Source: a phage
Direction: 5' to 3' (one strand)
Sequence record: NC_105788.1
Length of the DNA stretch: 49,689 bases
Shown here: positions 1,198-26,668 of the stretch, in pieces
Layout: each line of letters opens with the position of its first letter
Position numbering within the stretch: the first letter of the stretch is position 1
The notes under the pieces: generated by a model
Databases searched by the model: none
What the model was told of the DNA's origin: nothing
Seen by the model: the letters and a program-made list of their open reading frames with translations, nothing else
Program-made: the position numbers and the translations under genes

Positions 1198-1217
1198 ATA
1201 GCACTTTTTGTTAAAAC
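1198..1217 (+). promoter_or_regulatory. conserved box ATAGCACTTTTTGTTAAAAC (start of a 65-bp cassette nearly identical to the one upstream of the Dam gene)
   Basis: sequence identity to other copies; followed by CATTAT and TACCTCATCGAAACGAGA leader. Confidence 0.6.
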
Positions 1218-1279
1218 TGCCGGAATGGAATCTGGCATTATTACCTCATCGAAACGAGATACACATCAGGAGCAAGAAA

Positions 1280-1615
1280 ATGAAATACGAAAATCGCGGT
1301 AACGAAATCATCAAAATCGAAAACGGCGTTGAGTACATCATGGTTGCTTGCAAGGTTAACGGAATGGACTCATTCGTTTGGGAAGAAATCAAAACTGAAG
1401 ACAAAGCAGCTAAATTCCTGACCTGTGTTAATCAGCCTGATATGGAACGCGATACCTTCACTCGTTACGGTAAATATGAAATCGTTCGCGAGACTTCCTG
1501 CTTCTGGTGGGTCAAGCCTAACAGCCAGTACAAATTCCCGCGCAAAATCAGCAAGCGCACTATGCGCGAATCTGGCTTCAAGAAAGCATACGCCGCCGAG
1601 TTTGACATTGATTAA
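1280..1615 (+). CDS. hypothetical protein (111 aa)
   Basis: internal ATG of ORF 1208..1615 preceded by CAGGAG RBS; upstream part of ORF is the box cassette. Confidence 0.55.
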   Translation: MKYENRGNEIIKIENGVEYIMVACKVNGMDSFVWEEIKTEDKAAKFLTCVNQPDMERDTFTRYGKYEIVRETSCFWWVKPNSQYKFPRKISKRTMRESGFKKAYAAEFDID

Positions 1616-1634
1616 TAGCACGAATTGCTAAACG
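1615..1634 (+). promoter_or_regulatory. conserved box ATAGCACGAATTGCTAAAC followed by hairpin CCCCGA..TCGGGG and TATAGT
   Basis: box copy overlapping stop TAA of upstream gene. Confidence 0.6.
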
Positions 1635-1689
1635 CCCCGAGTGAGATCGGGGTATAGTTAACACATCAACCAATCAGGAGAATCAACAG

Positions 1690-1920
1690 ATGGCAATTAA
1701 ACACCCCGGGCTGAAGAAGGCAATTCAGCGCGCCAATGATGAGGGATTCATTGTCTACAGAACGCATTACGGTCACATGGGTGGCTTGAAAGAGCATCAT
1801 ACAAAGATTGAGCTTGTCGACTTGTGGGAGGATTACGATACATTCCAGTATATCGCCACGTCTGACGTAGAAGCGCAAGTGAAATACATCAACGACACAA
1901 TTGATAGTTTCAGAGGGTAA
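1690..1920 (+). CDS. hypothetical protein (76 aa)
   Basis: ATG preceded by AACCAATCAGGAG conserved RBS block. Confidence 0.55.
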   Translation: MAIKHPGLKKAIQRANDEGFIVYRTHYGHMGGLKEHHTKIELVDLWEDYDTFQYIATSDVEAQVKYINDTIDSFRG

Positions 1921-1924
1921 TTAT

Positions 1925-2296
1925 ATGTTTAAACAATTCGTAGACCTGGACTTCTCAGCCAGCACGGCAATCCAGACTGACGAGAAAGAAAGCGTAGCGA
2001 TCGAGAACATCGCGCGCAAGATTTACAACAAGCAAGAGAAGGCCGTGAGAGCCGCTCTAAGCGCTTATTATGGTGTAAGTGATGCAATGGAGTGCGTTAA
2101 CCGCGTAACGCGCGTGGTGGACCGTTTGGGTGTGTCTAGTTTCGTCGATAAAGACACTGGAGAGGTAATCATCCAGCTAAACAACCCATCTATGCGTACT
2201 GAGTTAGGCAATATTGCACTGTGGGGAGTTGCTAACTATTCAATCACCGTCAACTCATGTGTAGCGGATCGTGTTAAGGAGGCATTGTATGAATGA
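1925..2296 (+). CDS. hypothetical protein (123 aa)
   Basis: ATG at 1925 with AGAGGG RBS; ORF track 1901..2296 begins at a TTG. Confidence 0.5.
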   Translation: MFKQFVDLDFSASTAIQTDEKESVAIENIARKIYNKQEKAVRAALSAYYGVSDAMECVNRVTRVVDRLGVSSFVDKDTGEVIIQLNNPSMRTELGNIALWGVANYSITVNSCVADRVKEALYE

Positions 2297-2489
2297 TAAT
2301 ATTTACCGCGTAGTTGCGATCTCACGCAAAACGCAAAAGAGTGTGATCGCTTACATGGGTAGTAGCGCCATTGAAGCTACGGATGCCTTCGAATTATTGA
2401 AGAACAACGAGGGATTTATGAACACGTTCCGCGTTCGACTTGAGCGCCTCGAACCTGTTATCATTGATGAAGCGCGAAAGTTATCCTGA
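2289..2489 (+). CDS. hypothetical protein (66 aa)
   Basis: ATG at 2289 with AAGGAGG RBS; 8-nt overlap with upstream gene. Confidence 0.5.
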   Translation: MNDNIYRVVAISRKTQKSVIAYMGSSAIEATDAFELLKNNEGFMNTFRVRLERLEPVIIDEARKLS

Positions 2490-2505
2490 CTGGTTAGGGG
2501 GAATA

Positions 2506-2979
2506 ATGAACCATACTTACAAAATCACAACGAAGTCACCGAAGATTAACGGAAGCACGGTTGCGGCACTAAATAACGCGGCGGCAATTCACGAGAAAAA
2601 CATCATGGAGCGCGTTAAGGCGGCGGTAGGCCGATTCTACGGAATCAACGCAGACATTGCCGACAGCAAACGACTGTTCAAGTATGTGCCAGGCCATCCA
2701 TATAGCCGGATGATTGATATTAAGCACGACAAAGAGCTTGTTAGAATCGGATCGCTTGGCGTTGACGAGTTCGACCACAGCATTAACCTAGTTACGGCAT
2801 ATCAAACGTTGTTAGAATCGGATCGCTTGGCGTTGACGAAAAGCATGATTTGGATTCACACCTTCTACACCGGAAAATTTAACAGCGTTATTCATAAGAG
2901 AGTTTACGAAAGCTACTCTGAAGCTAATAAACAGCATGAAGTTTTAGGTGGAACGCTTAAAGCATATATTCCGGCATAA
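2506..2979 (+). CDS. hypothetical protein (157 aa)
   Basis: ATG 2506 after AGGGGG RBS; contains a 31-bp perfect direct repeat. Confidence 0.5.
   Translation: MNHTYKITTKSPKINGSTVAALNNAAAIHEKNIMERVKAAVGRFYGINADIADSKRLFKYVPGHPYSRMIDIKHDKELVRIGSLGVDEFDHSINLVTAYQTLLESDRLALTKSMIWIHTFYTGKFNSVIHKRVYESYSEANKQHEVLGGTLKAYIPA
2738..2839 (+). repeat. 31-bp perfect direct repeat (TTGTTAGAATCGGATCGCTTGGCGTTGACGA) at about 2738-2768 and 2809-2839
   Basis: read directly; copies 71 bp apart so they are translated in different frames. Confidence 0.7.
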
Positions 2980-2999
2980 ATAGCACGAATTGCTAAAGA
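2980..2999 (+). promoter_or_regulatory. conserved box ATAGCACGAATTGCTAAAGA
   Basis: box copy directly after stop of 2506..2979. Confidence 0.6.
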
Positions 3000-3057
3000 C
3001 ATGCTATCGGGGGTGATATATATTACTCCCACACCAAACGAAACAAAGGAATCAAAA

Positions 3058-3282
3058 ATGAGCATTAAAGTTGAGAATATCATCAAGCACCTGAACGCGA
3101 AAGGTCGTGTAGTTATCAAAATGGATAAGTCTTCCGGTTTTATTTCAATGACGGTAACTAAGTCCCGTAACGGTAATAACGTTATCGGCAGTACGCCAGG
3201 CTCGCGCTTAGTAAATGCAACAGATGCGGATGTGCGCGCTACGCTTGAGTCTAACTCAATTTACATTAATTCATGGAGTTGA
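3058..3282 (+). CDS. hypothetical protein (74 aa)
   Basis: ATG 3058 after AAAGGA RBS (internal start of ORF 3001..3282). Confidence 0.5.
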   Translation: MSIKVENIIKHLNAKGRVVIKMDKSSGFISMTVTKSRNGNNVIGSTPGSRLVNATDADVRATLESNSIYINSWS

Positions 3283-3495
3283 TTGATGGAGCGGGATAAT
3301 TTCTAGACTCGTTATTTTGCCGCTCTTGATGCTGGGCTTAGCGCGGAATGGTGTATCAAGGTTGCGTATAAAGAAATTACGCTTGACGACGCGCTAGGGA
3401 ATATGGATATGGACGCGGAGAGTGAATATAATCCCGGCTTCGAGATGCCTGGTGATGATATTGATGAGGACGACGACGATTATATTCCCTGGTAA

Positions 3496-3515
3496 ATAGC
3501 ACGATTTGTTAATAT
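3496..3515 (+). promoter_or_regulatory. conserved box variant ATAGCACGATTTGTTAATAT
   Basis: box copy after an unannotated acidic open frame. Confidence 0.5.
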
Positions 3516-3575
3516 TGCCGTAAGGTCATTTGATAAAGTGGCCTTATTCAAGATAACCAATCAGGAGCGAACGCA

Positions 3576-3992
3576 ATGAAAACCATTAAACTTAAATGCA
3601 CTTCAGCAGACAAAATCACAGGATTCGAAGTAAACAATCTGTATAAAGGTCGTGAGCGCTATGATGGCACTCGCGAAGTAAAGTTAAAATGCGGTAAGTA
3701 TTTAAAACTTGAAAAGCATGATGAATTACAGATTCACGGATCTGATGAAATCTTCTTCGCGAAGTTCACCGAGTTGAAAACAAAGACGCTCAAGTGCACC
3801 GGACTTGACCATCGCAACCCGATGAAAAAATCATTCAAAGTTGGCAAGCGTTATCAGGTAGAAAGCGGTCGCGCTCTTGGTGGCGTAGCTGGTTACATCT
3901 TTGATGAAGATGGATATCGCTGGACCCTGTTTCGCGAAGAGGTTGGTTTTAGTATCGCAGACGGCACAACCTTTGAGGCCAAATACTTATAA
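3576..3992 (+). CDS. hypothetical protein (138 aa)
   Basis: ATG preceded by AACCAATCAGGAG block. Confidence 0.55.
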   Translation: MKTIKLKCTSADKITGFEVNNLYKGRERYDGTREVKLKCGKYLKLEKHDELQIHGSDEIFFAKFTELKTKTLKCTGLDHRNPMKKSFKVGKRYQVESGRALGGVAGYIFDEDGYRWTLFREEVGFSIADGTTFEAKYL

Positions 3993-3995
3993 CCA

Positions 3996-4015
3996 ATAGC
4001 ACTTTTTGCTAAACG
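3996..4015 (+). promoter_or_regulatory. conserved box ATAGCACTTTTTGCTAAACG
   Basis: box copy after stop of 3576..3992. Confidence 0.6.
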
Positions 4016-4068
4016 CGTGTACCATTGGCGGTGTATCATTCACACCGTCAACAAAGGAGTTTATTGTG

Positions 4069-5637
4069 ATGTTTAATATTAAGCCAAAACTGAATTACCA
4101 ACAGATTATTGAGATCGCAAATAGCACTGGAGTTAATCCGGTGGCGATCGCAATTCGTGAAAACAGCTATGGGGATTCAGTTTCGTTTTGGCAAGATCCG
4201 ATCGATATCAACAGTGGAAACGATAAGTTCCCGCTGATTTCGTTAGGTGGCGATAACCTGGTATTCGAATATGCAAAGGCAAAGGCTGAGTCTGTACAGT
4301 TTCCTGTTTCGTCTGCGTACGCTCATTTCATTGGGTGCATCTCAGCCGCGATGCTAGGGAAGTTTTGGGTGCAATATCACGGAGAAGAGCAACCGACCGC
4401 TCTTTATATGGTGATTAGTCAGCCACCTTCAACAGGTAAATCAGCTATTAACTCAGCGGCGATTACACCTATGCGTGCGGAGATTCAGCGGCTGAATGAA
4501 GAGCGAAAAAAGGAGCGCATCCGTTTAACCAGTCAGCTACGTCAGGTCGAGAAGGAAATCAAAAACGATCCAAAGGGTAATACGACGGCGGCGCTGTACG
4601 AAGACAAGGAAAAACTGGAAGAAAAGATCAAGAAGATGGCTGATATTGTTTTTGCGGTATCAGATCCTACACCTGAAGGTCTTGCGAAAGTTGCGGCTGT
4701 TCAAGGTCATTTCTCAGTAATCTCTGATGAGGCAACGGCAATAAATACATTGCTTGGCCTGACTTATGGCGGCTCTGATAAGAAATCAAACAGCGAGCTT
4801 ATACTCAAGGCGTGGGATAAAAACCATATGGAGGTTGCGCGTTCAAATCAGGACAACAACTTATCTCTTTGCCCGGTCGGTTCGATCTGCGTCATTGCGC
4901 AGGATGAAACAATCAAGGGTATCATGGACGCAGGCCAGCGCGGCATCGGTGTATCTGAGCGTTTCCTCCTGGTTCGCGAGGAACCGCTTTTAGGTACTCG
5001 TATTCTTTGCGATGAAAATGGTGATGCGCTGTATAAGGAAGTCGATCGAGGGTTGGTGAGTAAATATTATCGACTCGTGCACAACATTATGAAGGAGGAC
5101 AACATTGTTCTCTCTGTAAGCCGCAATGCTATGCGTGAATTAAACCTTGCGCGTCAGGCGATGGAGCCGGATTTCGCAGCCGGGGGAAAATACTCTCACT
5201 CAATGCTACGCGGTCATCTCGGCAAGTTCGATAAGCATGCCTTGCGTATTGCTTCAGTTCTCCACACGATCAAGAATTGGGAGGGTGAATCACCGAACCG
5301 TTCCAACCGTGAGATTGACCTTGAAACAATGCAGGAAGCAATCATGATTTTCAATGAGCTTTCCAGGACTTATCTGTCGTCTGCCAGCGCTGCCGGGTAT
5401 GCTGGTGATGAGGCTGAATCTCGTAAGCTGATTGATGTTATCACTGAGATCGCAAAGAAGAACAAAGGGCGCGCTCCGATTCATAGCATTGTTGCAAAGT
5501 GCCGGAATGTTACGCCGTTCAACGGTCAACAGAAAGTATCTGAGCGAATCGACAGCCTGCTGATCACGCTCGAAGAGATGAACTACACTTGCCGGATTGA
5601 TGATATTGTTTTCATCAACCCTCGACTGATGGGTTAA
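4069..5637 (+). CDS. large early protein of unknown function (about 522 aa) with P-loop-like PPSTGKS motif
   Basis: ATG 4069 (GTG 4066 possible) after AAAGGAG; long uninterrupted ORF; motif resembles DUF3987-type NTPase signatures but not verified. Confidence 0.55.
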   Translation: MFNIKPKLNYQQIIEIANSTGVNPVAIAIRENSYGDSVSFWQDPIDINSGNDKFPLISLGGDNLVFEYAKAKAESVQFPVSSAYAHFIGCISAAMLGKFWVQYHGEEQPTALYMVISQPPSTGKSAINSAAITPMRAEIQRLNEERKKERIRLTSQLRQVEKEIKNDPKGNTTAALYEDKEKLEEKIKKMADIVFAVSDPTPEGLAKVAAVQGHFSVISDEATAINTLLGLTYGGSDKKSNSELILKAWDKNHMEVARSNQDNNLSLCPVGSICVIAQDETIKGIMDAGQRGIGVSERFLLVREEPLLGTRILCDENGDALYKEVDRGLVSKYYRLVHNIMKEDNIVLSVSRNAMRELNLARQAMEPDFAAGGKYSHSMLRGHLGKFDKHALRIASVLHTIKNWEGESPNRSNREIDLETMQEAIMIFNELSRTYLSSASAAGYAGDEAESRKLIDVITEIAKKNKGRAPIHSIVAKCRNVTPFNGQQKVSERIDSLLITLEEMNYTCRIDDIVFINPRLMG

Positions 5638-5641
5638 TAAT

Positions 5642-6049
5642 ATGCTTCTTCTTTTAGATCTGTTCAGGTTCTGCGAAGGTTACGACAAATACACCCGACA
5701 GCACATAGCGAAATTTATATACGCCCACAATGAAAGTGAGCGATTTGCTAAGGCCGCCGGGATGACTCGCCGTGAATTTACAAGCGCGCTATCTAAGGAG
5801 TTTTGCGCACGTTGCGTGACTGAGGGTTATCTTGATTGCAGGGGTGGGTTTTACTGGTGCAAGGGAAAGATCAAGCGCCCGGTAATGATGAAGCTGATGT
5901 GTATTGATGGCTACAACAATCGATATACGTGGGAAATGATGCACATTGGAGAAATGAGTGATGAAGAATTGTTTGGCGAACGTAGAAACGTTGATAGATC
6001 GGAACGTCGAATTGTGCGCAAGGCTCCAGCTTACGAAAGAAGAATTTGA
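5642..6049 (+). CDS. hypothetical protein (135 aa)
   Basis: ORF track; overlaps next call by about 90 nt in another frame, so the true 3' end is uncertain. Confidence 0.4.
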   Translation: MLLLLDLFRFCEGYDKYTRQHIAKFIYAHNESERFAKAAGMTRREFTSALSKEFCARCVTEGYLDCRGGFYWCKGKIKRPVMMKLMCIDGYNNRYTWEMMHIGEMSDEELFGERRNVDRSERRIVRKAPAYERRI

Positions 6050-6161
6050 GCAAGGATTACTTAGCCTACTGCTCACTTCGATGAGGGCCAATAACGACGG
6101 TGAGCACAATCTTTGCGATCAGGATGGGGAGTTGCTACTTCACGTCAAAAGGTACAAATAG
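5961..6161 (+). CDS. hypothetical protein (66 aa)
   Basis: ATG after GGAG RBS; stop TAG lies inside a box copy, as for many other genes. Confidence 0.45.
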   Translation: MKNCLANVETLIDRNVELCARLQLTKEEFEQGLLSLLLTSMRANNDGEHNLCDQDGELLLHVKRYK

Positions 6162-6177
6162 CACTTTTTGTTAAAAC
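6158..6177 (+). promoter_or_regulatory. conserved box ATAGCACTTTTTGTTAAAAC followed by hairpin CCCGAT..ATCGGG, TATATT and TTCATCGAAACGAAACG leader
   Basis: box copy. Confidence 0.6.
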
Positions 6178-7921: not shown

Positions 7922-7939
7922 CTTTATCAATTAGTGCGA
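7922..7939 (-). promoter_or_regulatory. degenerate box copy (GCACTAATTGATAAAG) followed by hairpin CCCGAA..TTCGGG and TATAGT
   Basis: resembles box cassettes; overlaps stop codon of 7931..9082. Confidence 0.4.
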
Positions 7940-9082
7940 TCCTGTCATTTCTGGACGATATATGAAACGACCGATTTCCCCAAACTGCTTATCGTAAACA
8001 ATTACCGCCGCCTGGCGATACGATCGCCACCCTCCGCGTGCTGCGTATGCATCTTTCGCGCCTAACTGGCCGTGTACTTCATCAATACCAAGCGAGTGCT
8101 CAGTGATTGTCTGGTGATGCCAGTGACCACTATGAGTATACACATACTTGCTCTCGCCGAAGTCTGATCGGAAATCTGCCGCCATTGCTGCAAGTCTCGT
8201 ATCTGCCTTCTTCATAGTGTGACCGTGAGTGTATCCCAACAAAGTATTTCCCCAACGAGTCTTATGCAGAATCATAGGACTAACATCAACGAATACTCGC
8301 GGCTCGTCTTCATAATATGCCGACATTGCAGCTCGCAGCCAAATCATCCCAGACTGATCGTGGTTCCCTTCGATAACCTGGACCTCGACTTCTTTGTGTT
8401 TCATAAGCATTTTGTCGATGGCGCGACGCACAGAACGAATCGCTACATGCACCAATTTCGCATATCGTGAATCCTGATCCAGAACGTGACCGCTTGCCGG
8501 GGTAACAGCGTCAAGGCCGTCAGAGTGAAGGAAGTCGCCACCGATTAACAGAACAGCCTTCTCTGCGTTCGGCGCAATATCGATCGCGTAATTAAAGAAG
8601 TCGCTAAGCACTTTTTCCGCTACGTCGGTGGAATAGTTCTCACCGCATTCATGCTTATGAGCAAGCGCGCCAATATGGAGATCGAATACCGGATAGAGTG
8701 CCAGCTTACCCATCGCTGTCGTAAGCCCTTGCGAGGTTAGTAGCTCGGTTGGCTTTGCTCGCGGCAGGTCTTCACAGAATGCAATACGCGCCGCTTCCAT
8801 CATTGCCGCAATCTTCTCACGGTCCTGATCGGTTTTAACCCAGCGCACTACCTCGGTCCCATCTCCGCGAATCATCGTTGATGTGCCTTTTACCATGAAT
8901 CCTTCCGGTACGTTCTTAGCAACATGCTCGTTACCGTGGAAGTGGCCTTCTTTTGCCAATTTTGCGTGGCGAGCTTCAACCGTGCGAATGTGCATACCGT
9001 ACTTTTCCGCGATCTCGCGAAGTGTAAGTCCGTTCATGCGTTCTTCGATAAGTTGCTCGGTAGTGATTTTAGATTGTGACAT
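7931..9082 (-). CDS. HTH domain fused to calcineurin-like metallophosphoesterase (Mre11/SbcD-like nuclease or PPP-type phosphatase)
   Basis: N-terminal helix-turn-helix-like segment (LTLREIAEKYGMHIRTVEARHAKL); metallophosphoesterase motifs DLHIG, GGDFLHSD, GNHD, GHTMKK, GHWHH; AAGGA RBS. Confidence 0.65.
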   Translation of the reverse strand: MSQSKITTEQLIEERMNGLTLREIAEKYGMHIRTVEARHAKLAKEGHFHGNEHVAKNVPEGFMVKGTSTMIRGDGTEVVRWVKTDQDREKIAAMMEAARIAFCEDLPRAKPTELLTSQGLTTAMGKLALYPVFDLHIGALAHKHECGENYSTDVAEKVLSDFFNYAIDIAPNAEKAVLLIGGDFLHSDGLDAVTPASGHVLDQDSRYAKLVHVAIRSVRRAIDKMLMKHKEVEVQVIEGNHDQSGMIWLRAAMSAYYEDEPRVFVDVSPMILHKTRWGNTLLGYTHGHTMKKADTRLAAMAADFRSDFGESKYVYTHSGHWHHQTITEHSLGIDEVHGQLGAKDAYAARGGWRSYRQAAVIVYDKQFGEIGRFIYRPEMTGSH

Positions 9083-9160: not shown

Positions 9161-9562
9161 TCATGCCACAGCCTTTAACCAGAATCCTAGATCTGAAGAT
9201 TTAAACTCAACCAGTTTTCCATTAACCTCAAGCATCATACTGTTTCTACCTGGTGAGTAATAACCTATATGCAACTCTTGCTCGATCCCAATAGTGCAAA
9301 GCACATTAACGAAGTCAGGAGGCAACCAATCAGAGAAAGGGATTTTCTTAACCTGCTTCTTTCCGATCCATATGGTCTGGTAGTCATCTAAGTTAATGTT
9401 TAAGCCTGGAAGACTTGTTGCTCTTTGCTGTTTTTCGTTCTCGCTCAATTCTCTTTCCTTCTTCACGATAAAATTCAAGTGATGGGGTAGCTGGCACTCT
9501 ATGCATTTTTCTCGGCATATCTTCCATAAATGAAATCTTTCCGTTTGAGATAATGCTAACAT
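9161..9562 (-). CDS. C-terminal frame of a frame-disrupted gene (hypothetical)
   Basis: protein-like ORF with no credible RBS at its own ATG; overlaps 9393..9665 by 170 nt in another frame. Confidence 0.3.
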   Translation of the reverse strand: MLALSQTERFHLWKICREKCIECQLPHHLNFIVKKERELSENEKQQRATSLPGLNINLDDYQTIWIGKKQVKKIPFSDWLPPDFVNVLCTIGIEQELHIGYYSPGRNSMMLEVNGKLVEFKSSDLGFWLKAVA

Positions 9563-9665
9563 CCTTTATATCGAAATATTTTGCTATTAGTGCTATATCG
9601 TCTGAGATTCCGCATTCCTTTGCGTGCTCCCACACTTCGCGCTTACCTTTCTTTTTTATCAGCAT
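9393..9665 (-). CDS. N-terminal frame of a frame-disrupted gene (hypothetical)
   Basis: good GGAGAAA RBS at 9665 start; 3' part looks like out-of-frame readthrough (KR-rich). Confidence 0.35.
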   Translation of the reverse strand: MLIKKKGKREVWEHAKECGISDDIALIAKYFDIKDVSIISNGKISFMEDMPRKMHRVPATPSLEFYREEGKRIERERKTAKSNKSSRLKH

Positions 9666-9908: not shown

Positions 9909-9928
9909 GTTTTAGCAATTAGTGCTGT
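9909..9928 (-). promoter_or_regulatory. box variant (AGCACTAATTGCTAAAAC) followed by hairpin TACCCG..CGGGTA and TATAGT
   Basis: box-like sequence overlapping stop of 9919..10170. Confidence 0.45.
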
Positions 9929-10170
9929 GTGATTATCTCAGAAGAAAGTTCTTCTACGTCTTTTTGGATGATTGAAGGCCAACGCTCGATATATTCATTT
10001 TTTATCTCATCGAAAGACATATCAAGAGAACTGGTGAACTCCCACAGATCGCAACCAATAACATCCTGAGTCAATCCGTTTTGCTCCATAATTTCGCAGC
10101 ACGTAGCGCGATAAAGAAGCCATAAACCTTGCTCAGTTAATTTAACAGGAACCATTTTTTCGCTCATCAT
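9919..10170 (-). CDS. hypothetical protein (83 aa)
   Basis: ATGA overlap with Dam stop; GGTGAGGAAAG RBS. Confidence 0.5.
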   Translation of the reverse strand: MMSEKMVPVKLTEQGLWLLYRATCCEIMEQNGLTQDVIGCDLWEFTSSLDMSFDEIKNEYIERWPSIIQKDVEELSSEIITQH

Positions 10171-10880
10171 ACTTTCCTCACCTTTGCTCGTTTGTTTTTA
10201 ACCGAAGGGCAAATGCTTGTGATTGGGATATAGTGAGTTTGCTGTGTCTCACCCTCTTTAAGTTCGCGCATGATAAAAATTACCGAACCTTTGTTATTAC
10301 CATCTACGGCCTTTCCAGTTTCACCGGATATGAAAGCCAGGCGACCGGATCGTGCGTATTCATTGCCGTCAATATCCTCAGTCAAGTCCGCTTCAATCCA
10401 GATTATTTCAGCTGCGTTCTGTCGCGCCTCAGTAAACCACGCCGTAGAGTTATCTGCAGGTAAAAGCATATCGATCTGATTGTTGTGCTCCATTTGCTCA
10501 ATGGCCTTCTTGACAAATATATCAGGTCGGCTATAAGGAGGATTTAACCAAACGTGCTTATTCTTTCCCCACCAACGTTTTAAGCAGTTTGTTTCCTGAG
10601 AGTAAAACTTCTCGCAAACTTTATTTTCTTCGCTTGCCGCAGCGTCGAGATCATATTTCCCATAACGACCCTCAAGGTATGCAATAACCTCGCGCGGAGT
10701 TGACCATAAATCACGAACAGCGTCAGGGGTATTTGTCCCCTTGTATCGACGCCCTGAAATCTCTTTGCAGGTTGGCGTTTTCAATGCCTGATAATAACCG
10801 CCTGATGCTATTGCTTCGCGAGTGAATGAGCAACCAGTCTCTGCAAAGTCGATGGTTTCAATATCATTAAAGTCTTTCAT
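10167..10880 (-). CDS. dam: DNA N6-adenine methyltransferase (phage Dam-like)
   Basis: WLNPPYS catalytic motif (NPPY); GAGAGGA RBS; preceded by a full box cassette. Confidence 0.75.
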   Translation of the reverse strand: MKDFNDIETIDFAETGCSFTREAIASGGYYQALKTPTCKEISGRRYKGTNTPDAVRDLWSTPREVIAYLEGRYGKYDLDAAASEENKVCEKFYSQETNCLKRWWGKNKHVWLNPPYSRPDIFVKKAIEQMEHNNQIDMLLPADNSTAWFTEARQNAAEIIWIEADLTEDIDGNEYARSGRLAFISGETGKAVDGNNKGSVIFIMRELKEGETQQTHYIPITSICPSVKNKRAKVRKV

Positions 10881-10931: not shown

Positions 10932-10951
10932 GTTTTAACAAAAAGTGCTAT
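10932..10951 (-). promoter_or_regulatory. conserved box (minus strand reads ATAGCACTTTTTGTTAAAAC); cassette nearly identical to 1198-1265
   Basis: box copy overlapping TAG stop of VRR-NUC gene, upstream of Dam. Confidence 0.6.
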
Positions 10952-11364
10952 TTCATTAATTCGTAAATTGCGACCTTGAATTGCTCAAATCCGTATGCGA
11001 CGGCAGGGAAGCCGCCACGCTCACGGACCTTTCGGAGAAATTCCCTTTGCTTGTCGCTGACTGGTGACGCCTTTCCTTTGCCTGACTTATTAACCCGCTT
11101 AAGTTCGATTGCTGCAAACGGGTATCGTGAGTTAACACCAATCAGGATAACAAAGTCTGACACGCCTTTAAGTAATCCGGCCTGCTCATCCCTGAGCGCC
11201 GATGTGATTGTTTTTTCACCTTCATTGACAGTGTGCCAAAATAGAAGGTGAGGAAAATTGTATTTCAGCCAGGATACACAATCCACCTGATGAGCGTCCT
11301 CCTTTCTAGTGTCGCTTGGATCTCTCTCGTAAAATTCTAAATAATCACCTTTGTCTGTAATCAT
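10948..11364 (-). CDS. VRR-NUC domain nuclease
   Basis: PD-(D/E)xK-like arrangement (GVSDFVILIG ... AAIELK); GGAGGA RBS inside helicase 3' end. Confidence 0.6.
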   Translation of the reverse strand: MITDKGDYLEFYERDPSDTRKEDAHQVDCVSWLKYNFPHLLFWHTVNEGEKTITSALRDEQAGLLKGVSDFVILIGVNSRYPFAAIELKRVNKSGKGKASPVSDKQREFLRKVRERGGFPAVAYGFEQFKVAIYELMK

Positions 11365-13379
11365 TCCGGGATATCCTCCATACCAAAGTCTTTTCGTGAG
11401 ATAATATCTTCTTTCTTCTGGTTGCGACGATGAGTTACGCGCACCGGGTGAGCAATATGATGTGAGTATTGCAAAATCTTGATGGCGTTCTTCATTCCGA
11501 TAAAGTATCGGCGCATTTTAGGATCTGATACGTGTGGCAATACACCTTTAGTTTTCCATAGCGTACCGCAAATCTTAGAGTCAGACTCGGGGAAGAATTT
11601 TTCATACGCCTTGAACTCATCACCATCATCGTTAATAAGAGTGTATTTGTATATTATGCCTTTCTGGTTTTTGGTTAGCGTAACCTCAAAATTCTTTACT
11701 TCATACCAGTCATTCTTGGTGTACGCCTTACCGGATAACTTCAGGTTGGGATCGACAAGCGAAACATCACAACAACGACAGACTCGAGCCACAACGTCAT
11801 TCTCTGCACCGCATCCTTTAACAAGGATTTTCCCGGTACGTTCATCAACCTGGTCCTCGCAAATCTGAGAAGTCCAGAAATAATCGCAACGTTCACCATC
11901 AATAACATTAACGCATCGTCGAGCATAGAAGCTATTTACGCAACCGCATTTCGGACATGTTTTCGGATCTTTTCCGTTTTCAAATCGCTTTTGGAATTGC
12001 GCCTGCTCAAGTATCGGATCGAAATAAAGCTGCCCCAGCTCATCCATGGTGCCTGCAAAATCCCACACCAAATGGTCTTGCTTAACCATTCCCTCAGCAA
12101 CCTGCCAGGATTTAAGCAGACGCATACCCCTACCCAAAAGCTGAATCAACAGAGTGAGCGACCCTATCTTGCGGAGTATGACACTGAAATCCCAATTTGG
12201 AACGTTAACGCCAGTCGTGAGCGCCATGACCTGAAAGGTGTATTTAATCTTCCCAGCCCTTACATCGTCCAGAATCTTCTTGCGCGTTTTGGTGTCTGTG
12301 TCGCCAGTGATTATTGCATAGGTGCTTCCTGGAGGCAGTGCCGCAGCCGCCTCTTTACAGTGACGCACCCCCGCGCATGTAATCAGAACCGCGTTACGTT
12401 CTTCAGCCTTTTTGGCGACCATTTGCATGATTCGCTGAGTAAGAGATTTATCATGAAGGATCTCATCTTCCATTGCCTTCATATCTTTCTCTGCAAAGTC
12501 CTGTACGCCGTCCTCGCTTGATGCCTTGAACTTATCCAGGTCGTAGTGTACGCCGTCAGTCGAACCGAATATCGTCGGCACAACAGAGCCAAACTCAATC
12601 AGATAGTTTGTGTCGATATCAGTTACGCGCTCACGCCAGAATCCTAACGCATTTGGATTCTCCACCAGAATCGGAACAACGCCCCTAAATTCAGATCCTG
12701 TCATGCCAAATATTCTGAGGTCATGCCCGTGAATCTCTTTACAGCGACGCATCATCTCCATGATTACGATCGTGTACTGGCTTCGCTTAGTTCCAAGTAA
12801 AGGTTTCCCATCATTACCAATCAGAGGAATCTCCCCGTCCATAATAATTTTCCCTTTCTCGCCCCTCATCTGCTCCATCGTTTCTTTTCCTTCGATGGCT
12901 TGAGCAAGGTCTTCCCAATCCACCTGGTGACATTCGTCGATCCCAATTACATGCGGGACAAAATCAGCCAACTCATTGTCGAGGCCATTTGCAACCGTAC
13001 CCTCAGAGCCAACCACGATCGGGAAGTAGCAGGACTTGATTCCAAGCGATGCTGAGAAGATGGAGTTCGTTACCCCGAAGTTGTCGATCTCCTCACTATC
13101 CTGATCGACAATCTCACCCTGTCGGGCAAGCACAAGCATTTTCAGGCCCATTTTTTGACACTGCTTTGCCACCATAGCGAATATGATTGTTTTACCCGCA
13201 GATACTGACGCTTTAACAAAGAATGGATGCTCGTAATTTGACAGGCGTTTTGCGATCTCGGCATAAGCAACAACCTGATACGGATAAGGAACGACCTCAC
13301 CGACAGTGAATCGTTCTTGAGTGCGTTTTATATAGTCCTCGCCAAGTAATGCGATTTGCTTCTTGATGTTAATTGTCAC
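11361..13379 (-). CDS. SF2 DNA helicase with C-terminal Cys-rich (zinc-binding-like) region
   Basis: Walker A SAGKT, DExH box IDECHQ, C-terminal CPKCGC..C..C cluster; start codon appears to be GTG. Confidence 0.75.
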   Translation of the reverse strand: MTINIKKQIALLGEDYIKRTQERFTVGEVVPYPYQVVAYAEIAKRLSNYEHPFFVKASVSAGKTIIFAMVAKQCQKMGLKMLVLARQGEIVDQDSEEIDNFGVTNSIFSASLGIKSCYFPIVVGSEGTVANGLDNELADFVPHVIGIDECHQVDWEDLAQAIEGKETMEQMRGEKGKIIMDGEIPLIGNDGKPLLGTKRSQYTIVIMEMMRRCKEIHGHDLRIFGMTGSEFRGVVPILVENPNALGFWRERVTDIDTNYLIEFGSVVPTIFGSTDGVHYDLDKFKASSEDGVQDFAEKDMKAMEDEILHDKSLTQRIMQMVAKKAEERNAVLITCAGVRHCKEAAAALPPGSTYAIITGDTDTKTRKKILDDVRAGKIKYTFQVMALTTGVNVPNWDFSVILRKIGSLTLLIQLLGRGMRLLKSWQVAEGMVKQDHLVWDFAGTMDELGQLYFDPILEQAQFQKRFENGKDPKTCPKCGCVNSFYARRCVNVIDGERCDYFWTSQICEDQVDERTGKILVKGCGAENDVVARVCRCCDVSLVDPNLKLSGKAYTKNDWYEVKNFEVTLTKNQKGIIYKYTLINDDGDEFKAYEKFFPESDSKICGTLWKTKGVLPHVSDPKMRRYFIGMKNAIKILQYSHHIAHPVRVTHRRNQKKEDIISRKDFGMEDIPE

Positions 13380-13393: not shown

Positions 13394-13422
13394 TTGAATC
13401 GTTGTATCGTTTACGCTATAAT
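13394..13422 (+). promoter_or_regulatory. sigma70-type promoter (TTGAAT-17 bp-TATAAT) for Cro-like gene
   Basis: perfect -10 hexamer and 17-bp spacer read directly; a box copy lies at about +12 to +31. Confidence 0.55.
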
Positions 13423-13440
13423 ACACGACATACAGTAAAC

Positions 13441-13460
13441 GTTTTTAGCAAAAAGTGCTA
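13441..13460. promoter_or_regulatory. conserved box in inverted orientation (GTTTTTAGCAAAAAGTGCTA) between promoter and RBS
   Basis: operator-like position immediately downstream of predicted start site. Confidence 0.55.
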
Positions 13461-13473
13461 CAGGAGAATTAAG

Positions 13474-13926
13474 ATGAATATGCAACGTATCGCAGAATCA
13501 ACTGGTGAAATCGATAAACGTCACATTAATGGTAACAACGGAACGCGACGCGGTAAAGATAAAAAGCCTCGCCAACGCTGCGGTTTCTATATCCACAAAG
13601 AAGAAACACGCGCCGGACTGAGAGCGCGACTTGACGCTCTTATTGAATATTACGGCGGCCCAGCGGCCTGCGCAAAGGCTCTGAAAGTTAGCAATCAGAC
13701 CGTGCAAGGCTGGAAAGAGCGCAATATGATTTCGTGGCAAGGTGCTGAAGCTGCACATCGTGCTTACCGTCGTCAGGGTTGTAAAGGATTCCGCGCCGCA
13801 TGGTTGCGATTCGACCTCAAGTTTGACGGTAACGGCAAGTGTCTAGAGAAACGATGCAAGAACAAGAAGTTTATGCGAGTGGTGAGGAAGGAAGATATCG
13901 GGACGACCAATAGCATTTTTAGTTAA
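13474..13926 (+). CDS. Cro/C1-type HTH DNA-binding protein
   Basis: HTH segment GGPAACAKALKVSNQTVQGWKE; CAGGAG RBS; last codons TNSIFS-stop encoded by a box copy. Confidence 0.55.
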   Translation: MNMQRIAESTGEIDKRHINGNNGTRRGKDKKPRQRCGFYIHKEETRAGLRARLDALIEYYGGPAACAKALKVSNQTVQGWKERNMISWQGAEAAHRAYRRQGCKGFRAAWLRFDLKFDGNGKCLEKRCKNKKFMRVVRKEDIGTTNSIFS

Positions 13927-13929
13927 AAC
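13910..13929 (+). promoter_or_regulatory. conserved box variant ATAGCATTTTTAGTTAAAAC
   Basis: box copy overlapping 3' end of Cro-like gene. Confidence 0.5.
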
Positions 13930-13934
13930 AAACG

Positions 13935-13970
13935 ACGCGTAGCGGGGTAACATCCTTCTACGCGTTTTTT
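13935..13970 (+). terminator. intrinsic terminator (ACGCGTAG ... CTACGCGT + T6)
   Basis: 8-bp stem followed by T-run. Confidence 0.55.
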
Positions 13971-13986
13971 ATTTGGAGATCTGGAA

Positions 13987-14922
13987 GTGAACGAAGAATT
14001 TATGATGTTTCAGAAAGAGGACGTATTACCGTATATGAAGGGGTTATGGCGCGAGGCGTTCCAGTCCATATGCGGATTGCCTAACGAGGTTTTCAACAAG
14101 AAGCACCAACCTTGCCCTAACTGCGGCGGCAAAGACCGTTTTCGCTGGACTGACAATCTGAATACTCCCGGCGACGGCGGCGCGATCTGCAACTCATGCG
14201 GTAACGACTCAGGAATCGGTTGGCTAATGAAGCTAACTGGAATGCCGTACAGCGAATGCATAAACATCCTGGGGAGATTTCTCGGAAAGGTTCCGCAGGA
14301 ATACATTGTCAAGGCCAACAAAAAAGCGCGCCGAACTCCTGTATCTGGTGTTAATGTTATGATGGCAGACCACGAGGCAGTGATGAAAGTTATGGTGCGT
14401 ACAGAGAAGCGCGTAAACACGCCTCTAAGCACGTTTGAGTCACTACCTACTGAATCATTCGACGTTGGCGTAAAACGTCGCGAGGATGGCTCAGAATCAG
14501 TATTTCACACCATACCGTGTCAACTTGTACACGAGGACGGGCTTGATGATGAGTTCTGCAATATTTTGATTATTGATGAGGAAGGAAGAGAGTCATTCTA
14601 CGCGAAGAAATACACAAGCGGATCAGTTGCCGTGACTGGTAAAACTGAAAAGGCGATCTACTTATGCCTGAATTGGATTGATGCTCAGCACATTGCATTT
14701 CACACAAAACAAGAGGTATGGGCCTGCTTCACTCCTGAAAACCTAGAAATGGTTGCGTACAGATACAAAGGGGATCGCGAGGTAAGGGTGGCGTGCGAAC
14801 CTTCAGACAAAGATACTTTGTACATGGCTGACGATCGACAATTGAAGATAATCATCCCGAATCACGGAGGATACCGCTCAGGAATGCAAGCAAAATTATT
14901 CTCAGCAAGCGACCTACTTTAA
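13987..14922 (+). CDS. DNA primase with N-terminal zinc-ribbon (T7 gp4 / P4 alpha-like)
   Basis: CPNCGG..DRFRW..CNSCG zinc-ribbon motif typical of primase-helicase Zn-binding domain; GTG start after GGAG. Confidence 0.65.
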   Translation: MNEEFMMFQKEDVLPYMKGLWREAFQSICGLPNEVFNKKHQPCPNCGGKDRFRWTDNLNTPGDGGAICNSCGNDSGIGWLMKLTGMPYSECINILGRFLGKVPQEYIVKANKKARRTPVSGVNVMMADHEAVMKVMVRTEKRVNTPLSTFESLPTESFDVGVKRREDGSESVFHTIPCQLVHEDGLDDEFCNILIIDEEGRESFYAKKYTSGSVAVTGKTEKAIYLCLNWIDAQHIAFHTKQEVWACFTPENLEMVAYRYKGDREVRVACEPSDKDTLYMADDRQLKIIIPNHGGYRSGMQAKLFSASDLL

Positions 14923-14944
14923 CCGCCTTCGGGCGGTTTTTTAT
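14923..14944 (+). terminator. intrinsic terminator (CCGCC-TTCG-GGCGG + T6)
   Basis: GC hairpin with T-run immediately after primase stop. Confidence 0.7.
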
Positions 14945-14950
14945 TGCCCG

Positions 14951-14979
14951 TTGCAAGACCAGTACCACAATGATAAAAT
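14951..14979 (+). promoter_or_regulatory. sigma70-type promoter with extended -10 (TTGCAA-17 bp-TGaTAAAAT) for tail fibre gene
   Basis: read directly; box copy overlaps predicted start site. Confidence 0.55.
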
Positions 14980-14983
14980 CAGT

Positions 14984-15003
14984 GCTTAGCAATTCGTGCT
15001 ATT
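14984..15003. promoter_or_regulatory. conserved box in inverted orientation (GCTTAGCAATTCGTGCTATT) at predicted +1 region
   Basis: box copy between -10 and RBS. Confidence 0.55.
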
Positions 15004-15022
15004 TACTTAAGGAGTTTATACT

Positions 15023-16885
15023 ATGGCTTTATATAGACGCGGTACGGCATCAATGGATGCAGACGGAACGGTTCACGGAACCGATACAAAATGGAAAGAC
15101 CAACTAGCTCTGATTCGCGTAGGTGCAACTATCGTATTCCTGGAGCAACCAATTAAGCTGGCAGTGATTAGCGATATCGTTAGCGACACTGAATTAAAGG
15201 CTATCTCTACCGACGGTCAAACGGCGGCTAACGGTAAGTATGTGATCCTACTTAACGATTCACTGACTGTAAACGGCTTAGCTCAAAACGTCGCTGAGAC
15301 GCTTCGATACTATCAAAGCAAAGAGACTGAGATTGCCGGGGCAATGGATATCATTGCGAGTCTTGATATGGATAACCTTAACCGCATCGTTGAAGAAATT
15401 AAGGCGAACAAATCAGCCGCTGAATCTGCACAGAATCAAGCGGAACTTGCTCGAGACTCAGCGAATGCAGCACGTGACGAAGCTAAAGCCACCAAAGGAC
15501 AAGTTCAGCAAATTGTTGACGGGGCAGTAGGTAGCATCAATGCAGCAAAAGAACAAGCGATCACAGATGTAGGCTCTAAAGAATCAGCGGCGATTACGCA
15601 CATCGACACGGAAGAGAAAGCAGCCATTAAGGCAATCAATGACGCCAAAGGAGATCTGTCAGGTTACGTTAACAACGCTCAGGCGGCGGCGCAAACTGCA
15701 ACCTCAGCAAAAAACGACGCTCAGGCGGCACGAGACGCAGCGGTAAGATCAAAGGACGCAGCGGCAGTCAGCGCGCAGGAAGCTAAAGACGCAGCAAATA
15801 GCGTTGATGCATCCAATCTTCTTAAGAAGAGTGCCAACCTAAGCGACTTATCAAGTATTGGTGCGGCAATGGAGAATTTAGGTGTAGATAGGTTTGCTCA
15901 ATCTGAGAACAACGGAGAGACGCAGGTAAAAACAAAATCTAAATCAAAATGGATTTTCATAAAAGATAATAGTGATTGGGGGGCTTGGGATAATGCCAGC
16001 AGAAAAGCTATTCCGCTTCCGATTGGTTTCGGTGGCACGGGGCGCGGCGATAACGTCGCCATTTTCAGACAATTTAAATCAAACGGCGATTCACCGGACG
16101 GTGTTATTTTAAAGCAAAATGGTGATGGGTTCGGCGGTATTGGATGGGCCGATAAGAACGATAAGGTACGCTGGCGCGCAGGGATTGACGCCTCGGCGGG
16201 GCACTTTAAATGGTATTCATATGATTCTGCTGGGAACTACCGAGACACCATGCTGGAAATTACAGGGTTAGGTTTAGGCGGTATGGTGTGGTTTCGTGAT
16301 ATGACTGTACGCCCAACGGCAGCAGTTCCAGCGCGGTCTTTCGTACTAAACAATGGCAATGCAAGCGTACCCGCAGACAAACTTCGAACGATGTGGGATA
16401 CGGTTAACATTAACACCAATATCATCTATAAATATTTCGAAAAAGGTAACGGACAGGGTTTTACGATCAACTGGCCTACTACTGGCGGAACGCTGGCGCT
16501 TCAAGGCACGTCAGGGAGAGACTTTAAAAAGAACATTGAAGATGCTGATGTTATTGAGGCTGTAGAACGCATTGAGAAAATGCGAATGGTGCATTACGTG
16601 TATAAGGATGATGAGCAGGAGCGAGTTCGCTTCGGTATCATAGCAGAAGAAGCGGAGGAAATTGCGCCTCAATACATTAAGCATAGGGAAGAGGCATTCG
16701 ATGTTGAGATTGATCCTGAAACAAATGCTGTGATTGGGGAAAAAATTCGAGATCGACCTACTGTAGATAACAACCCAATCGTAATGGACTTGATGGGCTG
16801 CGCGCAGTATGCGATTCGTGAATGTAAGAGAATGGCGGCAGAAATTGAAGAACTCAAGGGGATTATTGAAGAATTGAGGGGGTAG
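15023..16885 (+). CDS. side tail fibre protein with C-terminal intramolecular chaperone (peptidase S74-like) domain
   Basis: Ala/Gln-rich coiled-coil-like central region; C-terminal region typical of auto-cleaving chaperone domains of phage fibres (T5 pb1 / endosialidase-like). Confidence 0.6.
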   Translation: MALYRRGTASMDADGTVHGTDTKWKDQLALIRVGATIVFLEQPIKLAVISDIVSDTELKAISTDGQTAANGKYVILLNDSLTVNGLAQNVAETLRYYQSKETEIAGAMDIIASLDMDNLNRIVEEIKANKSAAESAQNQAELARDSANAARDEAKATKGQVQQIVDGAVGSINAAKEQAITDVGSKESAAITHIDTEEKAAIKAINDAKGDLSGYVNNAQAAAQTATSAKNDAQAARDAAVRSKDAAAVSAQEAKDAANSVDASNLLKKSANLSDLSSIGAAMENLGVDRFAQSENNGETQVKTKSKSKWIFIKDNSDWGAWDNASRKAIPLPIGFGGTGRGDNVAIFRQFKSNGDSPDGVILKQNGDGFGGIGWADKNDKVRWRAGIDASAGHFKWYSYDSAGNYRDTMLEITGLGLGGMVWFRDMTVRPTAAVPARSFVLNNGNASVPADKLRTMWDTVNINTNIIYKYFEKGNGQGFTINWPTTGGTLALQGTSGRDFKKNIEDADVIEAVERIEKMRMVHYVYKDDEQERVRFGIIAEEAEEIAPQYIKHREEAFDVEIDPETNAVIGEKIRDRPTVDNNPIVMDLMGCAQYAIRECKRMAAEIEELKGIIEELRG

Positions 16886-18028: not shown

Positions 18029-18102
18029 CTTAACTTCTCCTGATTGGTGTATGAGGTGCATTATAACACCTCACTAATTATTTGTTTAGCTATTTGTGCC
18101 GT

Positions 18103-24402: not shown

Positions 24403-24450
24403 GATGTTTACCTTTTTGTGCTATTTATCGGTAGACTCATTATACAGGCG

Positions 24451-24475
24451 AAAAAAAACCCGCGCAAGGCGGGTT
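24451..24475 (-). terminator. intra-operon hairpin plus T8 between gpI-like and gpJ-like genes
   Basis: AACCCGC-CTTGC-GCGGGTT + T8 on minus strand. Confidence 0.5.
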
Positions 24476-24479
24476 AATT

Positions 24480-25079
24480 TTAACTCATATCCTCGGCATA
24501 AGAACCTGCTGAGAAAGTTGCTCCACCTCCGGCGCGATATCCATATGGGACCGGGAGAGGGTATCCCGCCGCCGTCGTATTGACAGCACCGCCGAACGCG
24601 TACGAAGGTTTATTCTTGCTTGATTGAACTTCAAAGTTTGCGCCACCCGGCTGCGGTGAAATCATCTGCATCACGCCGCCCAGCACCATAGCGCCGCCCA
24701 TCATAAACAGAGACGAGGACATTGTGCCCATTAAAGCCAGAGACGCGCCGCCAGTATAGAATGCTGCAACCATTATTGCCGCGCCCAATACAACCTGGAA
24801 TAGACCTCCTGTCTTAGAGCCAGTAGGGATCGGTACGATTCTTATCTCTTTCGCGCACTTGAATTTTTCCTCTTCATGGTGTCCAACGTTAACGCCATCC
24901 ACAAATATCGCAAACTTGCTACGAGATCCTATCTCGCTTTGCATGTATTCTTTAAATCCATCCACCTGACTGGATAGCGCCCGTATGGCTTCCGGGTAAG
25001 AGTCAACAGCGTAACGGTGAAAGACGCCGAAACGCCTCCCAAGTGAACCTGACAATTTAATTACTTTTACATCATTCAT
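24480..25079 (-). CDS. tail assembly protein (lambda gpI-like)
   Basis: shared blocks with lambda I (EAIRAL; IVP..G.K.GG.FQVVLGAA; MVLGGV.QM). Confidence 0.85.
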   Translation of the reverse strand: MNDVKVIKLSGSLGRRFGVFHRYAVDSYPEAIRALSSQVDGFKEYMQSEIGSRSKFAIFVDGVNVGHHEEEKFKCAKEIRIVPIPTGSKTGGLFQVVLGAAIMVAAFYTGGASLALMGTMSSSLFMMGGAMVLGGVMQMISPQPGGANFEVQSSKNKPSYAFGGAVNTTAAGYPLPVPYGYRAGGGATFSAGSYAEDMS

Positions 25080-26589: not shown

Positions 26590-26630
26590 TGATTTTTCCT
26601 CTTGTTTACCTGCAACCATTCTACAGCTAC

Positions 26631-26652
26631 AAAAAAACCCGCGCAAGGCGGG
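26631..26652 (-). terminator. intra-operon hairpin plus T7 between gpM-like and gpL-like genes
   Basis: CCCGC-CTTGC-GCGGG + T7; near-identical to the hairpin at 24451-24475. Confidence 0.5.
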
Positions 26653-26668
26653 CTTTTGTTATGTGGCG

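Follow-up and report, generated by a model that had tools for sequence, protein, structure and literature searches.

The subject of this analysis is a short repeated sequence, called the box below, in a 49,689-nucleotide stretch of phage DNA (sequence record NC_105788.1; the window hereafter). The window belongs to Escherichia phage CLB_P3, a virulent T1-like Tunavirus of the family Drexlerviridae, and is a rotated form of OL770108.1, as established by 100% identity across the query and by whole-genome comparison. An original prediction had placed copies of the box on the promoters of a Cro-like gene, the side fibre gene and TerS, and had read them as repressor operators rather than promoter elements.

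Several described systems come close to the arrangement in the window. In phage lambda, CI activates PRM from a site of OR centred at -42 and represses the divergent PR. The MotA box of T4 middle promoters has a different sequence, is centred near -30 and needs MotA/AsiA, while the stoperators of the temperate mycobacteriophage L5 are asymmetric repressor sites that lie within transcribed DNA and point in the direction of transcription. UP elements have an A/T-rich consensus, lie at -40 to -60 and lack fixed G/C positions. In Escherichia coli, rob is repressed by the MarA/SoxS/Rob factors, and purA and hdeA are likewise cases of a marbox, the site of these factors, in the core promoter. The MarA/SoxS/Rob family binds its asymmetric site as a monomer (PMC6900184). 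Class II sites for MarA, SoxS, Rob or RamA are forward, lie near -41 and belong to promoters without a recognisable -35 (PMC10268841; PMC12052159; PMC8811837), in which the -10 is canonical (PMC10268841). MarA, SoxS and Rob act as repressors at pbpG, where the marbox lies within the spacer of the promoter (PMC12052159). Finally, 21-nucleotide (nt) direct repeats with the consensus aaATAGCACnnnTTGnTAAAA were published for phage TLS and mentioned for T1, Rtp and Rogue1; they were stated to follow the direction of transcription, and their function was left open between stoperator, enhancer site and UP element (PMC11447400).

The box, which the original prediction had not defined, was delimited by repeat finding and pattern scans as ATAGCAC-N5-G(C/T)TAAA. 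It is an asymmetric element of 18-20 bp, usually flanked as aaATAGCAC...TAAAAc, and it is the same element as the TLS repeat, whose consensus (about 20 intergenic copies) it matches. At no more than two mismatches the window holds 29 copies, 28 of them intergenic, and the intergenic DNA that carries them amounts to only about 6.1 kb. Bases G4, C5, C7 and G13, that is GCAC and G13, are invariant or nearly so across copies.

A good -10 hexamer follows the closing TAAA at exactly 20 nt (N20) in 20 of the 29 copies in the window, in 16 of 25 in T1, in 14 of 18 in the Klebsiella Webervirus KLPN1 and in 13 of 19 in the Loudonvirus DTL, which is distant from CLB_P3; other spacings are rare in all four. 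The canonical boxes are all co-oriented with the downstream gene, whose start codon lies 53-66 nt after the box. Typical -10 hexamers are TATAGT, CATAAT and TATAAT, 13 of the 24 canonical copies have a TGn ahead of the -10, and at the -35 position the best match to TTGACA reaches merely 2-3 of 6 bases in 20 of these 24. The promoters formed in this way, whose start sites are predicted positions, serve the non-structural clusters at both genome ends as well as genes of replication, recombination and lysis. The window has few sigma70 promoters of consensus type, and a like scarcity was reported by the TLS authors (PMC11447400). Judged from the sequence, the main role of the box family is that of a promoter element standing in for the -35, and not that of an operator. 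In this respect the original reading of the box as an operator rather than a promoter does not hold for the family as a whole, given the 20 of 29 copies with a -10 at N20.

The T4 middle promoters are similar in that an activator box replaces the -35 while a normal sigma70 -10 is kept, but the phage box is centred near -41 and not near -30; the AsiA family was not among the families listed in the Pfam scans of 54 non-structural proteins, in which MotA was not searched for. The boxes also differ from L5 stoperators, since most of them lie upstream of a -10 at fixed spacing and several are inverted, and no integrase is present in the annotation tables of T1 and CLB_P3.

The published marbox consensus GCAHWWWWTGYYAAA (PMC6900184), at no more than one mismatch, had 24 matches in the window against 1.34 expected, and none of 100 shuffles reached 24. 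The older consensus of 19-20 nt, AYnGCACnnWnnRYYAAAYn, had 22 matches against 1.05 expected at the same threshold. Conversely, a weight matrix built solely from phage boxes was used to scan three host regions, micF, marRAB and rob. The known marbox of E. coli micF (ACAGCACTGAATGTCAAA, forward) was the unique top match there, with a score of 10.5 versus -0.8 for the next one, as was the known marbox of E. coli marRAB (ATGCCACGTTTTGCTAAA, backward), with 16.0 versus -1.9; two marbox-like matches were found upstream of rob. The layout of micF, namely ACAGCACTGAATGTCAAA, N20, TAGAAT, 7 nt and the annotated MicF 5' end (+1), equals the phage spacing, and the rob promoter region of E. coli (AACAGCAAAAAATGCTATTAT) has a backward box running into TATTAT, the layout seen at the phage capsid promoter described below.

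By sequence and geometry the box therefore fits a marbox of the micF class II type. Both the host class and the phage promoters have a forward asymmetric site centred near -41 over the -35 position, the N20 spacing, no recognisable -35 and a canonical -10. The conserved asymmetry of the box fits binding of the monomer type because proteins of the MarA/SoxS/Rob family bind an asymmetric site as monomers. The phage sites differ from the host class in that they are found in a virulent phage as about 29 near-identical, near-consensus copies in 50 kb, whereas the host sites are degenerate and scattered; in that they add conserved bases A3, T11 and T12 and a stem-loop that lies in the spacer or surrounds the -10; and in that binding of the host protein is putative. 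A literature search found no link between marbox or Rob and T1-like phages. The repeat itself, activator-dependent class II promoters and the reuse of a transcription factor site for occlusion are already known, while the N20 promoter architecture, the geometry identical to micF and the conserved occluding copies are new as far as the literature was searched; the TLS paper does not describe the fixed 20-nt link to the -10, the marbox match or inverted and occluding copies as such (PMC11447400).

Most copies look like activator sites of early promoters, and a few lie where a bound protein would block late promoters. The best overall explanation, which we hold with about even confidence, is a single asymmetric 18-20 bp site used in two ways and likely read as a marbox by the host. 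In the first use, about 20-24 forward copies exactly 20 nt upstream of a -10 and centred near -41 would replace the -35 as activator sites, and the resulting class II activator-dependent promoters would drive nearly all non-structural gene clusters. In the second use, a few copies would act as occluding sites on second, self-sufficient promoters of structural genes, of sigma70 type or with an extended -10: in the spacer at the capsid gene, over the -10 and +1 at TerS, at +1 at the side fibre gene and in the 5' leader at gpJ. A protein bound there would hinder RNA polymerase, and the late promoters might be relieved as replicating phage DNA titrates the factor. Repression by the late-promoter copies, like any role in timing, is something we infer from their positions, and activation and the identity of the binder are likewise proposed from sequence, geometry and conservation.

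The sequence and geometry of the box are marbox-like, and therefore the most likely occupant would be a host monomer of the MarA/SoxS/Rob type: Rob, which is constitutively present in the host, MarA or SoxS under stress, or RamA in Klebsiella. As the binder we favour a host factor, with slightly better than even confidence, over a phage regulator, which we consider unlikely. Among the matches listed in the Pfam scans of the 54 non-structural proteins (25 of 31 families in one scan) no AraC/XylS-type protein was found, and tblastn with MarA and SoxS gave a best E of 0.45 on the phage. These searches rule out a phage-encoded MarA-like protein, although the exclusion is not absolute. The box is also invariant across genera of Escherichia and Klebsiella phages, in contrast to the Cro-like regulator that the phage itself encodes, whose putative recognition helix varies (NQTVQGW, PQAVEEW, IQVVQQW).

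Two complete modules of the T1 type were also found in phage KP15 (GU295964.1, about 10040-10430; L049 9990-10090 / L102 270-700), a 174-kb T4-like Klebsiella Slopekvirus. Each module consists of a box, a hairpin spacer, TATAGT or TATCTT, CATCGAAACA and a ribosome-binding site (RBS), and precedes small open reading frames (ORFs) without a homologue in the four Drexlerviridae genomes checked. In the KP15 record the modules are labelled 'putative middle promoter', and they are kept in 117 records. KP15-like phages appear to lack the Cro-like regulator, as none of 30 sampled rows of regulator homologues was a large phage, and their box modules likewise speak for a host factor as the binder.

Several points weigh against a host-read marbox used in two ways. 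Uniformity is far greater among the phage boxes than among host marboxes, and the conservation of A3, T11 and T12, at positions that are free in the marbox, could mean a more stringent and different reader. In unstressed cells little MarA and SoxS is present, a large part of Rob is kept inactive, and we know of no report of rob, marA or soxS mutants restricting T1. A conserved phage helix-turn-helix (HTH) regulator is encoded exactly at a box-bearing bidirectional promoter, and an HTH dimer centred at -42 could activate in the manner of lambda CI. The KP15 modules may be inactive relics. Copies at +9 to +38 (gpJ, gene 30254-30571 and the regulator gene) are poor repression sites for a small monomer. 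Occlusion is not the sole reading of unusually placed copies either, because MarA can activate from unusual positions too (PMC12781870). A broader proposal, that the whole T1-like transcription programme is wired to host MarA/SoxS/Rob, with about 20 marboxes switching on early and middle genes and a few holding down the capsid, terminase and fibre promoters, is put forward as tentative and short of probable.

The Cro-like regulator gene (13474-13926, plus strand; ATG at 13474) encodes 150 aa with one HTH. Its product matches Pfam P22_Cro with E=4.5e-5, below the family cutoff; the T1 record reports HHpred similarity to P22 C2, and a sequence search against solved structures gave a marginal match to P22 Cro only (E=0.81). 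Homologues are present in 824 records; the rows sampled had the genome size of Drexlerviridae, and 0 of 30 evenly spaced rows belonged to a large phage. The promoter of this gene, P_reg, is of sigma70 type (TTGAAT-17-TATAAT, 13394-13422, plus strand; -35 at 13394-13399, -10 at 13417-13422) with 10 of 12 bases of the consensus. The box GTAGCACTTTTTGCTAAA (13444-13461, minus strand) lies at about +16 to +33 of the predicted P_reg start and abuts the RBS AGGAG. It is inverted for the regulator gene and forward for the promoter of the divergent DNA helicase gene, P_hel, whose -10 TATTAT (13418-13423, minus strand) is exactly 20 nt from the box; the helicase gene (11361-13379, minus strand) starts 64 nt from the box. 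TATTAT and the TATAAT of P_reg overlap by five bases on opposite strands. Across 14 Tunavirus genomes, 1 of 18 columns of the box and 0 of 7 columns of the helicase -10 are variable. KLPN1 and DTL show the whole arrangement too: a P_reg of consensus type (TTGTCA-16-TATAAT in KLPN1, TACAAT in DTL), a box that lies inverted between this -10 and the RBS, and a P_hel of the box-dependent kind.

The box at the Cro-like gene is a canonical promoter element of the divergent helicase gene, so that it needs no explanation as an operator, and here too the original reading was not upheld. A dual role is nevertheless possible, and a bidirectional switch with one site is plausible because P_reg and P_hel share the -10 region: occupancy of the box would favour leftward firing and disfavour P_reg. 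As in lambda OR, one bound site would have opposite outcomes at two back-to-back promoters, with an HTH regulator gene at the switch. Unlike lambda OR, the locus has a single asymmetric site instead of a tripartite dyad operator, its -10 elements overlap, the phage is virulent and binding of a regulator is putative. The placement typical of Cro and CI operators, over the core promoter of the controlled gene, is found at the side fibre gene, TerS and the capsid gene, whereas at the Cro-like gene the box lies downstream (+16 to +33).

The strongest of the alternatives, although we consider it unlikely, is that the box is the operator and activator site of this regulator. Host polymerase would fire P_reg, a regulator dimer on TAGCA-N5-TGCTA would activate about 20 promoters from about -42, like lambda CI at PRM, and the regulator would shut P_reg and hold or modulate the late promoters that carry boxes. 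In favour of this reading are the Cro/C2-like HTH of a protein whose gene is conserved in 824 records, P_reg as one of the very few consensus-type promoters of the genome and the box between its -10 and RBS in three subfamilies. The 5-bp dyad TAGCA/TGCTA (5-5-5), centred at -42, is perfect in about half of the boxes. However, the marbox consensus itself contains GCA...TGC, and the asymmetry of the box is strictly conserved, with a fixed orientation relative to the -10: A1, A17 and A18 have no symmetric partners, positions 1, 7, 11, 17 and 18 are asymmetrically conserved, and C7 and its dyad partner T11 are each present in 27 of 29 copies. With the regulator as reader, the full match to the marbox consensus and to the micF spacing would be a coincidence, the invariance of the box would be at odds with the differing recognition helices, KP15-like phages would carry box modules without a detectable regulator homologue, and the clusters of small ORFs behind box promoters at both genome ends would have to await synthesis of the regulator.

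The reading of one marbox-like site used in two ways also covers the copies in the structural region, every one of which has a non-canonical, promoter-proximal placement. At the side (lateral) tail fibre gene (15023-16885, plus strand; RBS 15008-15013, ATG 15023) the promoter TTGCAA-17-TGaTAAAAT spans 14951-14979 (-35 at 14951-14956, TGn and -10 at 14971-14979) and is followed by the inverted box ATAGCACGAATTGCTAAG (14985-15002, minus strand) at about -2 to +17. On its own strand this box has neither a usable -10 (TACTGG is found) nor a gene to serve. Across the 14 Tunavirus genomes the variable columns number 0 of 6 in the -35, 8 of 14 in the spacer, 0 of 9 in the TGn and -10, 3 of 5 in the gap and 2 of 18 in the box. 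DTL has a like layout, with TGCTACAAT, 5 nt and an inverted box.

Upstream of TerS, the forward box ATAGCACTAAATGTTAAA (41065-41082, minus strand; about -8 to +10) overlaps the last two bases of the extended -10 TGGTAAAAT (41081-41089, minus strand), which is preceded by a terminator at about 41102-41124. No -10 is present 20 nt from this box (GTGAAC). In the 14 genomes, variable columns number 1 of 9 in the TGn and -10, 2 of 16 in the box and 11 of 16 and 14 of 16 in the flanks; the n of TGn varies (G, C or A) among relatives, and TG and TAAAAT are constant. The box is kept down to about 70% TerS identity and is absent in L037, DTL and KLPN1, where the extended -10 TGnTATAAT is retained. We adopted ATG 41048 as the start of TerS (40524-41048, minus strand), as in T1. 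The start in the CLB_P3 record, ATG 41072, falls in the box, and the RBS AAGAGGA and the T1 annotation favour ATG 41048. The late operons open with a repeated unit of a GC hairpin, a T-run and TG(n)TA(T/G/A)AAT within about 15 nt (24438-24482, 26617-26661 and 41088-41132), and this order of terminator and -10 fits the 'transcripton' idea that the TLS paper credits to the T1 genome paper (PMC11447400).

The major capsid gene has the promoter TTGACG-16-TATTAT (34354-34381, minus strand; 10 of 12 bases, with TG), and the inverted box ATAGCACTTTTTGTTAAA (34357-34374, plus strand) fills its spacer and the first bases of its -10 (-27 to -10). Promoter and spacer box are kept together in Tunavirus, Webervirus, Hanrivervirus, Vilniusvirus and a K50-type Klebsiella phage. 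At gpJ, the forward box ATAGCACAAAAAGGTAAA (24407-24424, minus strand) lies 14 nt after TATAAT (24444-24439), overlaps the RBS of gpJ (ATG 24402) and has no acceptable -10 at N19-21; the same arrangement is found in T1. In the table of the TLS repeats, DR7 (negative strand) is the equivalent of the capsid copy and DR8 that of the gpJ copy (PMC11447400). Gene 30254-30571 has a further inverted box (30593-30610, plus strand) immediately ahead of its RBS and 27 nt beyond TAAAAT (30643-30638).

In sequence, all three placements named by the original prediction were confirmed, with an inverted box between the -10 and the RBS at the Cro-like gene and the side fibre gene and a box over the extended -10 at TerS. 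Its operator reading gains support from the side fibre and TerS copies, which have no -10 and no gene on their own strand, overlap the start of an independent promoter and are conserved. The capsid copy, which the original prediction had not listed, would support an operator logic more strongly than either of them. Together these boxes overlap the spacer, the -10 or the start site of self-sufficient promoters (capsid -27 to -10, TerS -8 to +10, side fibre -2 to +17), and an operator-like role of the non-canonical copies is plausible because the placements are conserved across Drexlerviridae genera. As in repression of the pbpG and rob type, the capsid copy covers the spacer and -10 of a self-sufficient promoter, a likeness of sequence layout, whereas some phage copies lie further downstream; we know of no MarA/SoxS/Rob-family repression site as far downstream as +9 to +38. 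We estimate that nearly half of randomly chosen 80-nt stretches of intergenic DNA contain a box, and co-location of box and promoter alone is not significant because the boxes are so dense in the intergenic DNA. Beyond chance are the box family itself, the selective conservation in the 14 Tunavirus genomes and the arrangements kept in other genera.

It is improbable, in our view, that the late-promoter copies are antisense or divergent promoter elements, or neutral leftovers of promoter duplication. The regulator-site box is indeed a bona fide divergent promoter element, the box at 30593 (plus strand) has TGaTAAGAT at 20 nt on its own strand, kept in T1, and the capsid box at 34357 (plus strand) has TGtTATGCA on its own strand. 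At the side fibre gene, TerS and gpJ, however, positions N19-21 from the box offer no acceptable -10, which removes the antisense promoter for these copies, and the antisense hexamer of the capsid copy is not conserved in KLPN1, NBD2 and K50; at 30593 an antisense promoter is possible. Conservation of the boxes, both against the bases that flank them and from genus to genus, argues against neutral relics.

It is most improbable that RNA polymerase itself reads the box as an UP-element-like or unusual -35-like element, with late copies of no regulatory meaning. The stretches between the conserved blocks of the box are indeed rich in A/T, its position is -50 to -31, such modules would work in any phage, e.g., KP15, and the UP-element idea was raised in the TLS paper (PMC11447400). 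However, the UP element is rejected because GCAC and G13 are invariant, TTGYTA is 22 nt from the -10 and too far for a -35, and the conserved inverted copies inside and downstream of other promoters would be left unexplained. An element acting at the RNA level was also discarded, as the copies lie at differing places relative to the predicted start and in both orientations.

The remaining copies are mostly canonical. On the plus strand, box promoters with a -10 at N20 are present at 733-750 (CATAAT), 1198-1215 (CATTAT), 1615-1632 (TATAGT), 3496-3513 (TAAAGT, with TGn), 3996-4013 (TATCAT) and 6158-6175 (TATATT). Those on the minus strand are at 7923-7940 (TATAGT), 9911-9928 (TATAGT), 10934-10951 (CATTAT), 42896-42913 (TATAGT), 44269-44286 (TAGAAT), 44789-44806 (TATGAT), 46336-46353 (TATAGT), 47062-47079 (TATAAT), 47623-47640 (TATAGT) and 48362-48379 (TATAGT). 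The -10 is at N19 in the canonical promoter at 2980-2997 (plus strand, TATATA) and in that of the recombinase gene at 18085-18102 (minus strand, TATAAT, with TGn), and at N21 at 49518-49535 (plus strand, TATGAT). The box at 9579-9596 (minus strand), near gene 9161-9562, has TAGCAT at N20. The box ATAGCATTTTTAGTTAAA (13910-13927, plus strand), at the end of the regulator gene and upstream of the primase gene, is kept in T1 and KLPN1, and its TAACAT at 20 nt falls in the loop of a terminator (13934-13971). A perfect box without a -10 at N20 lies at 49313-49330 (plus strand) and corresponds to T1 103-120 (minus strand), near one end of the T1 record. The box-like sequence TAAGCACGTTTGGTTAAA at 10543-10560 (minus strand), within the DNA adenine methyltransferase gene and kept in T1 and KLPN1, is probably coding sequence rather than a site.

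Canonical boxes are accompanied by a stem-loop that lies within the 20-nt spacer or else surrounds the -10, and in which the stem sequence varies and the pairing is kept. Examples in the 42 nt after the box are found at 1633-1674, 42854-42895 (minus strand) and 44747-44788 (minus strand). The mean z of the folding energy after canonical boxes was -2.55 in the window (n=23), -2.99 in KLPN1 and -2.11 in DTL, and no stem-loop was found at the non-canonical 'operator' copies (z near 0). In the window, KLPN1 and DTL, a CATCGA(A/C)AACGA motif follows the -10 at a distance of 5-6 nt, where the transcript is predicted to have its 5' end, and AACCAATCAGGAG precedes many start codons; examples of these accompanying motifs are found at 778-790, 1243-1255 and 42840-42855 (minus strand).

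Window positions 1-5901 are 99.6% identical to 43781-49659 of OL770108.1, with nine gap openings, and the window thus differs from the deposited CLB_P3 record; some ORF boundaries are shifted by these differences, e.g., 2440-2979. The ORF annotated from 3001 begins 3 nt after a box, and a start near 3076 is more likely.

To our knowledge, none of the classic T phages is less well understood than T1, whose promoters and early-to-late switch have never been defined. Among the publications we found, only the TLS paper describes the repeat, and it does not settle the function; the marbox reading makes the question simply testable. If the regulator of the phage were the reader, the locus of the Cro-like gene would be a compact bidirectional switch built from a single site and a pair of overlapping -10 elements. 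If a host factor reads the box, dependence on regulators of multidrug resistance would extend to a large coliphage and Klebsiella phage family, many members of which are under consideration for therapy, and phage expression would respond to inducers of these regulators, e.g., bile salts, salicylate and oxidants. Should the whole programme be wired to these factors, infection would read the Rob/MarA/SoxS state of the host, as set by bile salts, antibiotics and oxidative stress, and replicating phage DNA could bring about the change from early to late expression by titrating the factor.

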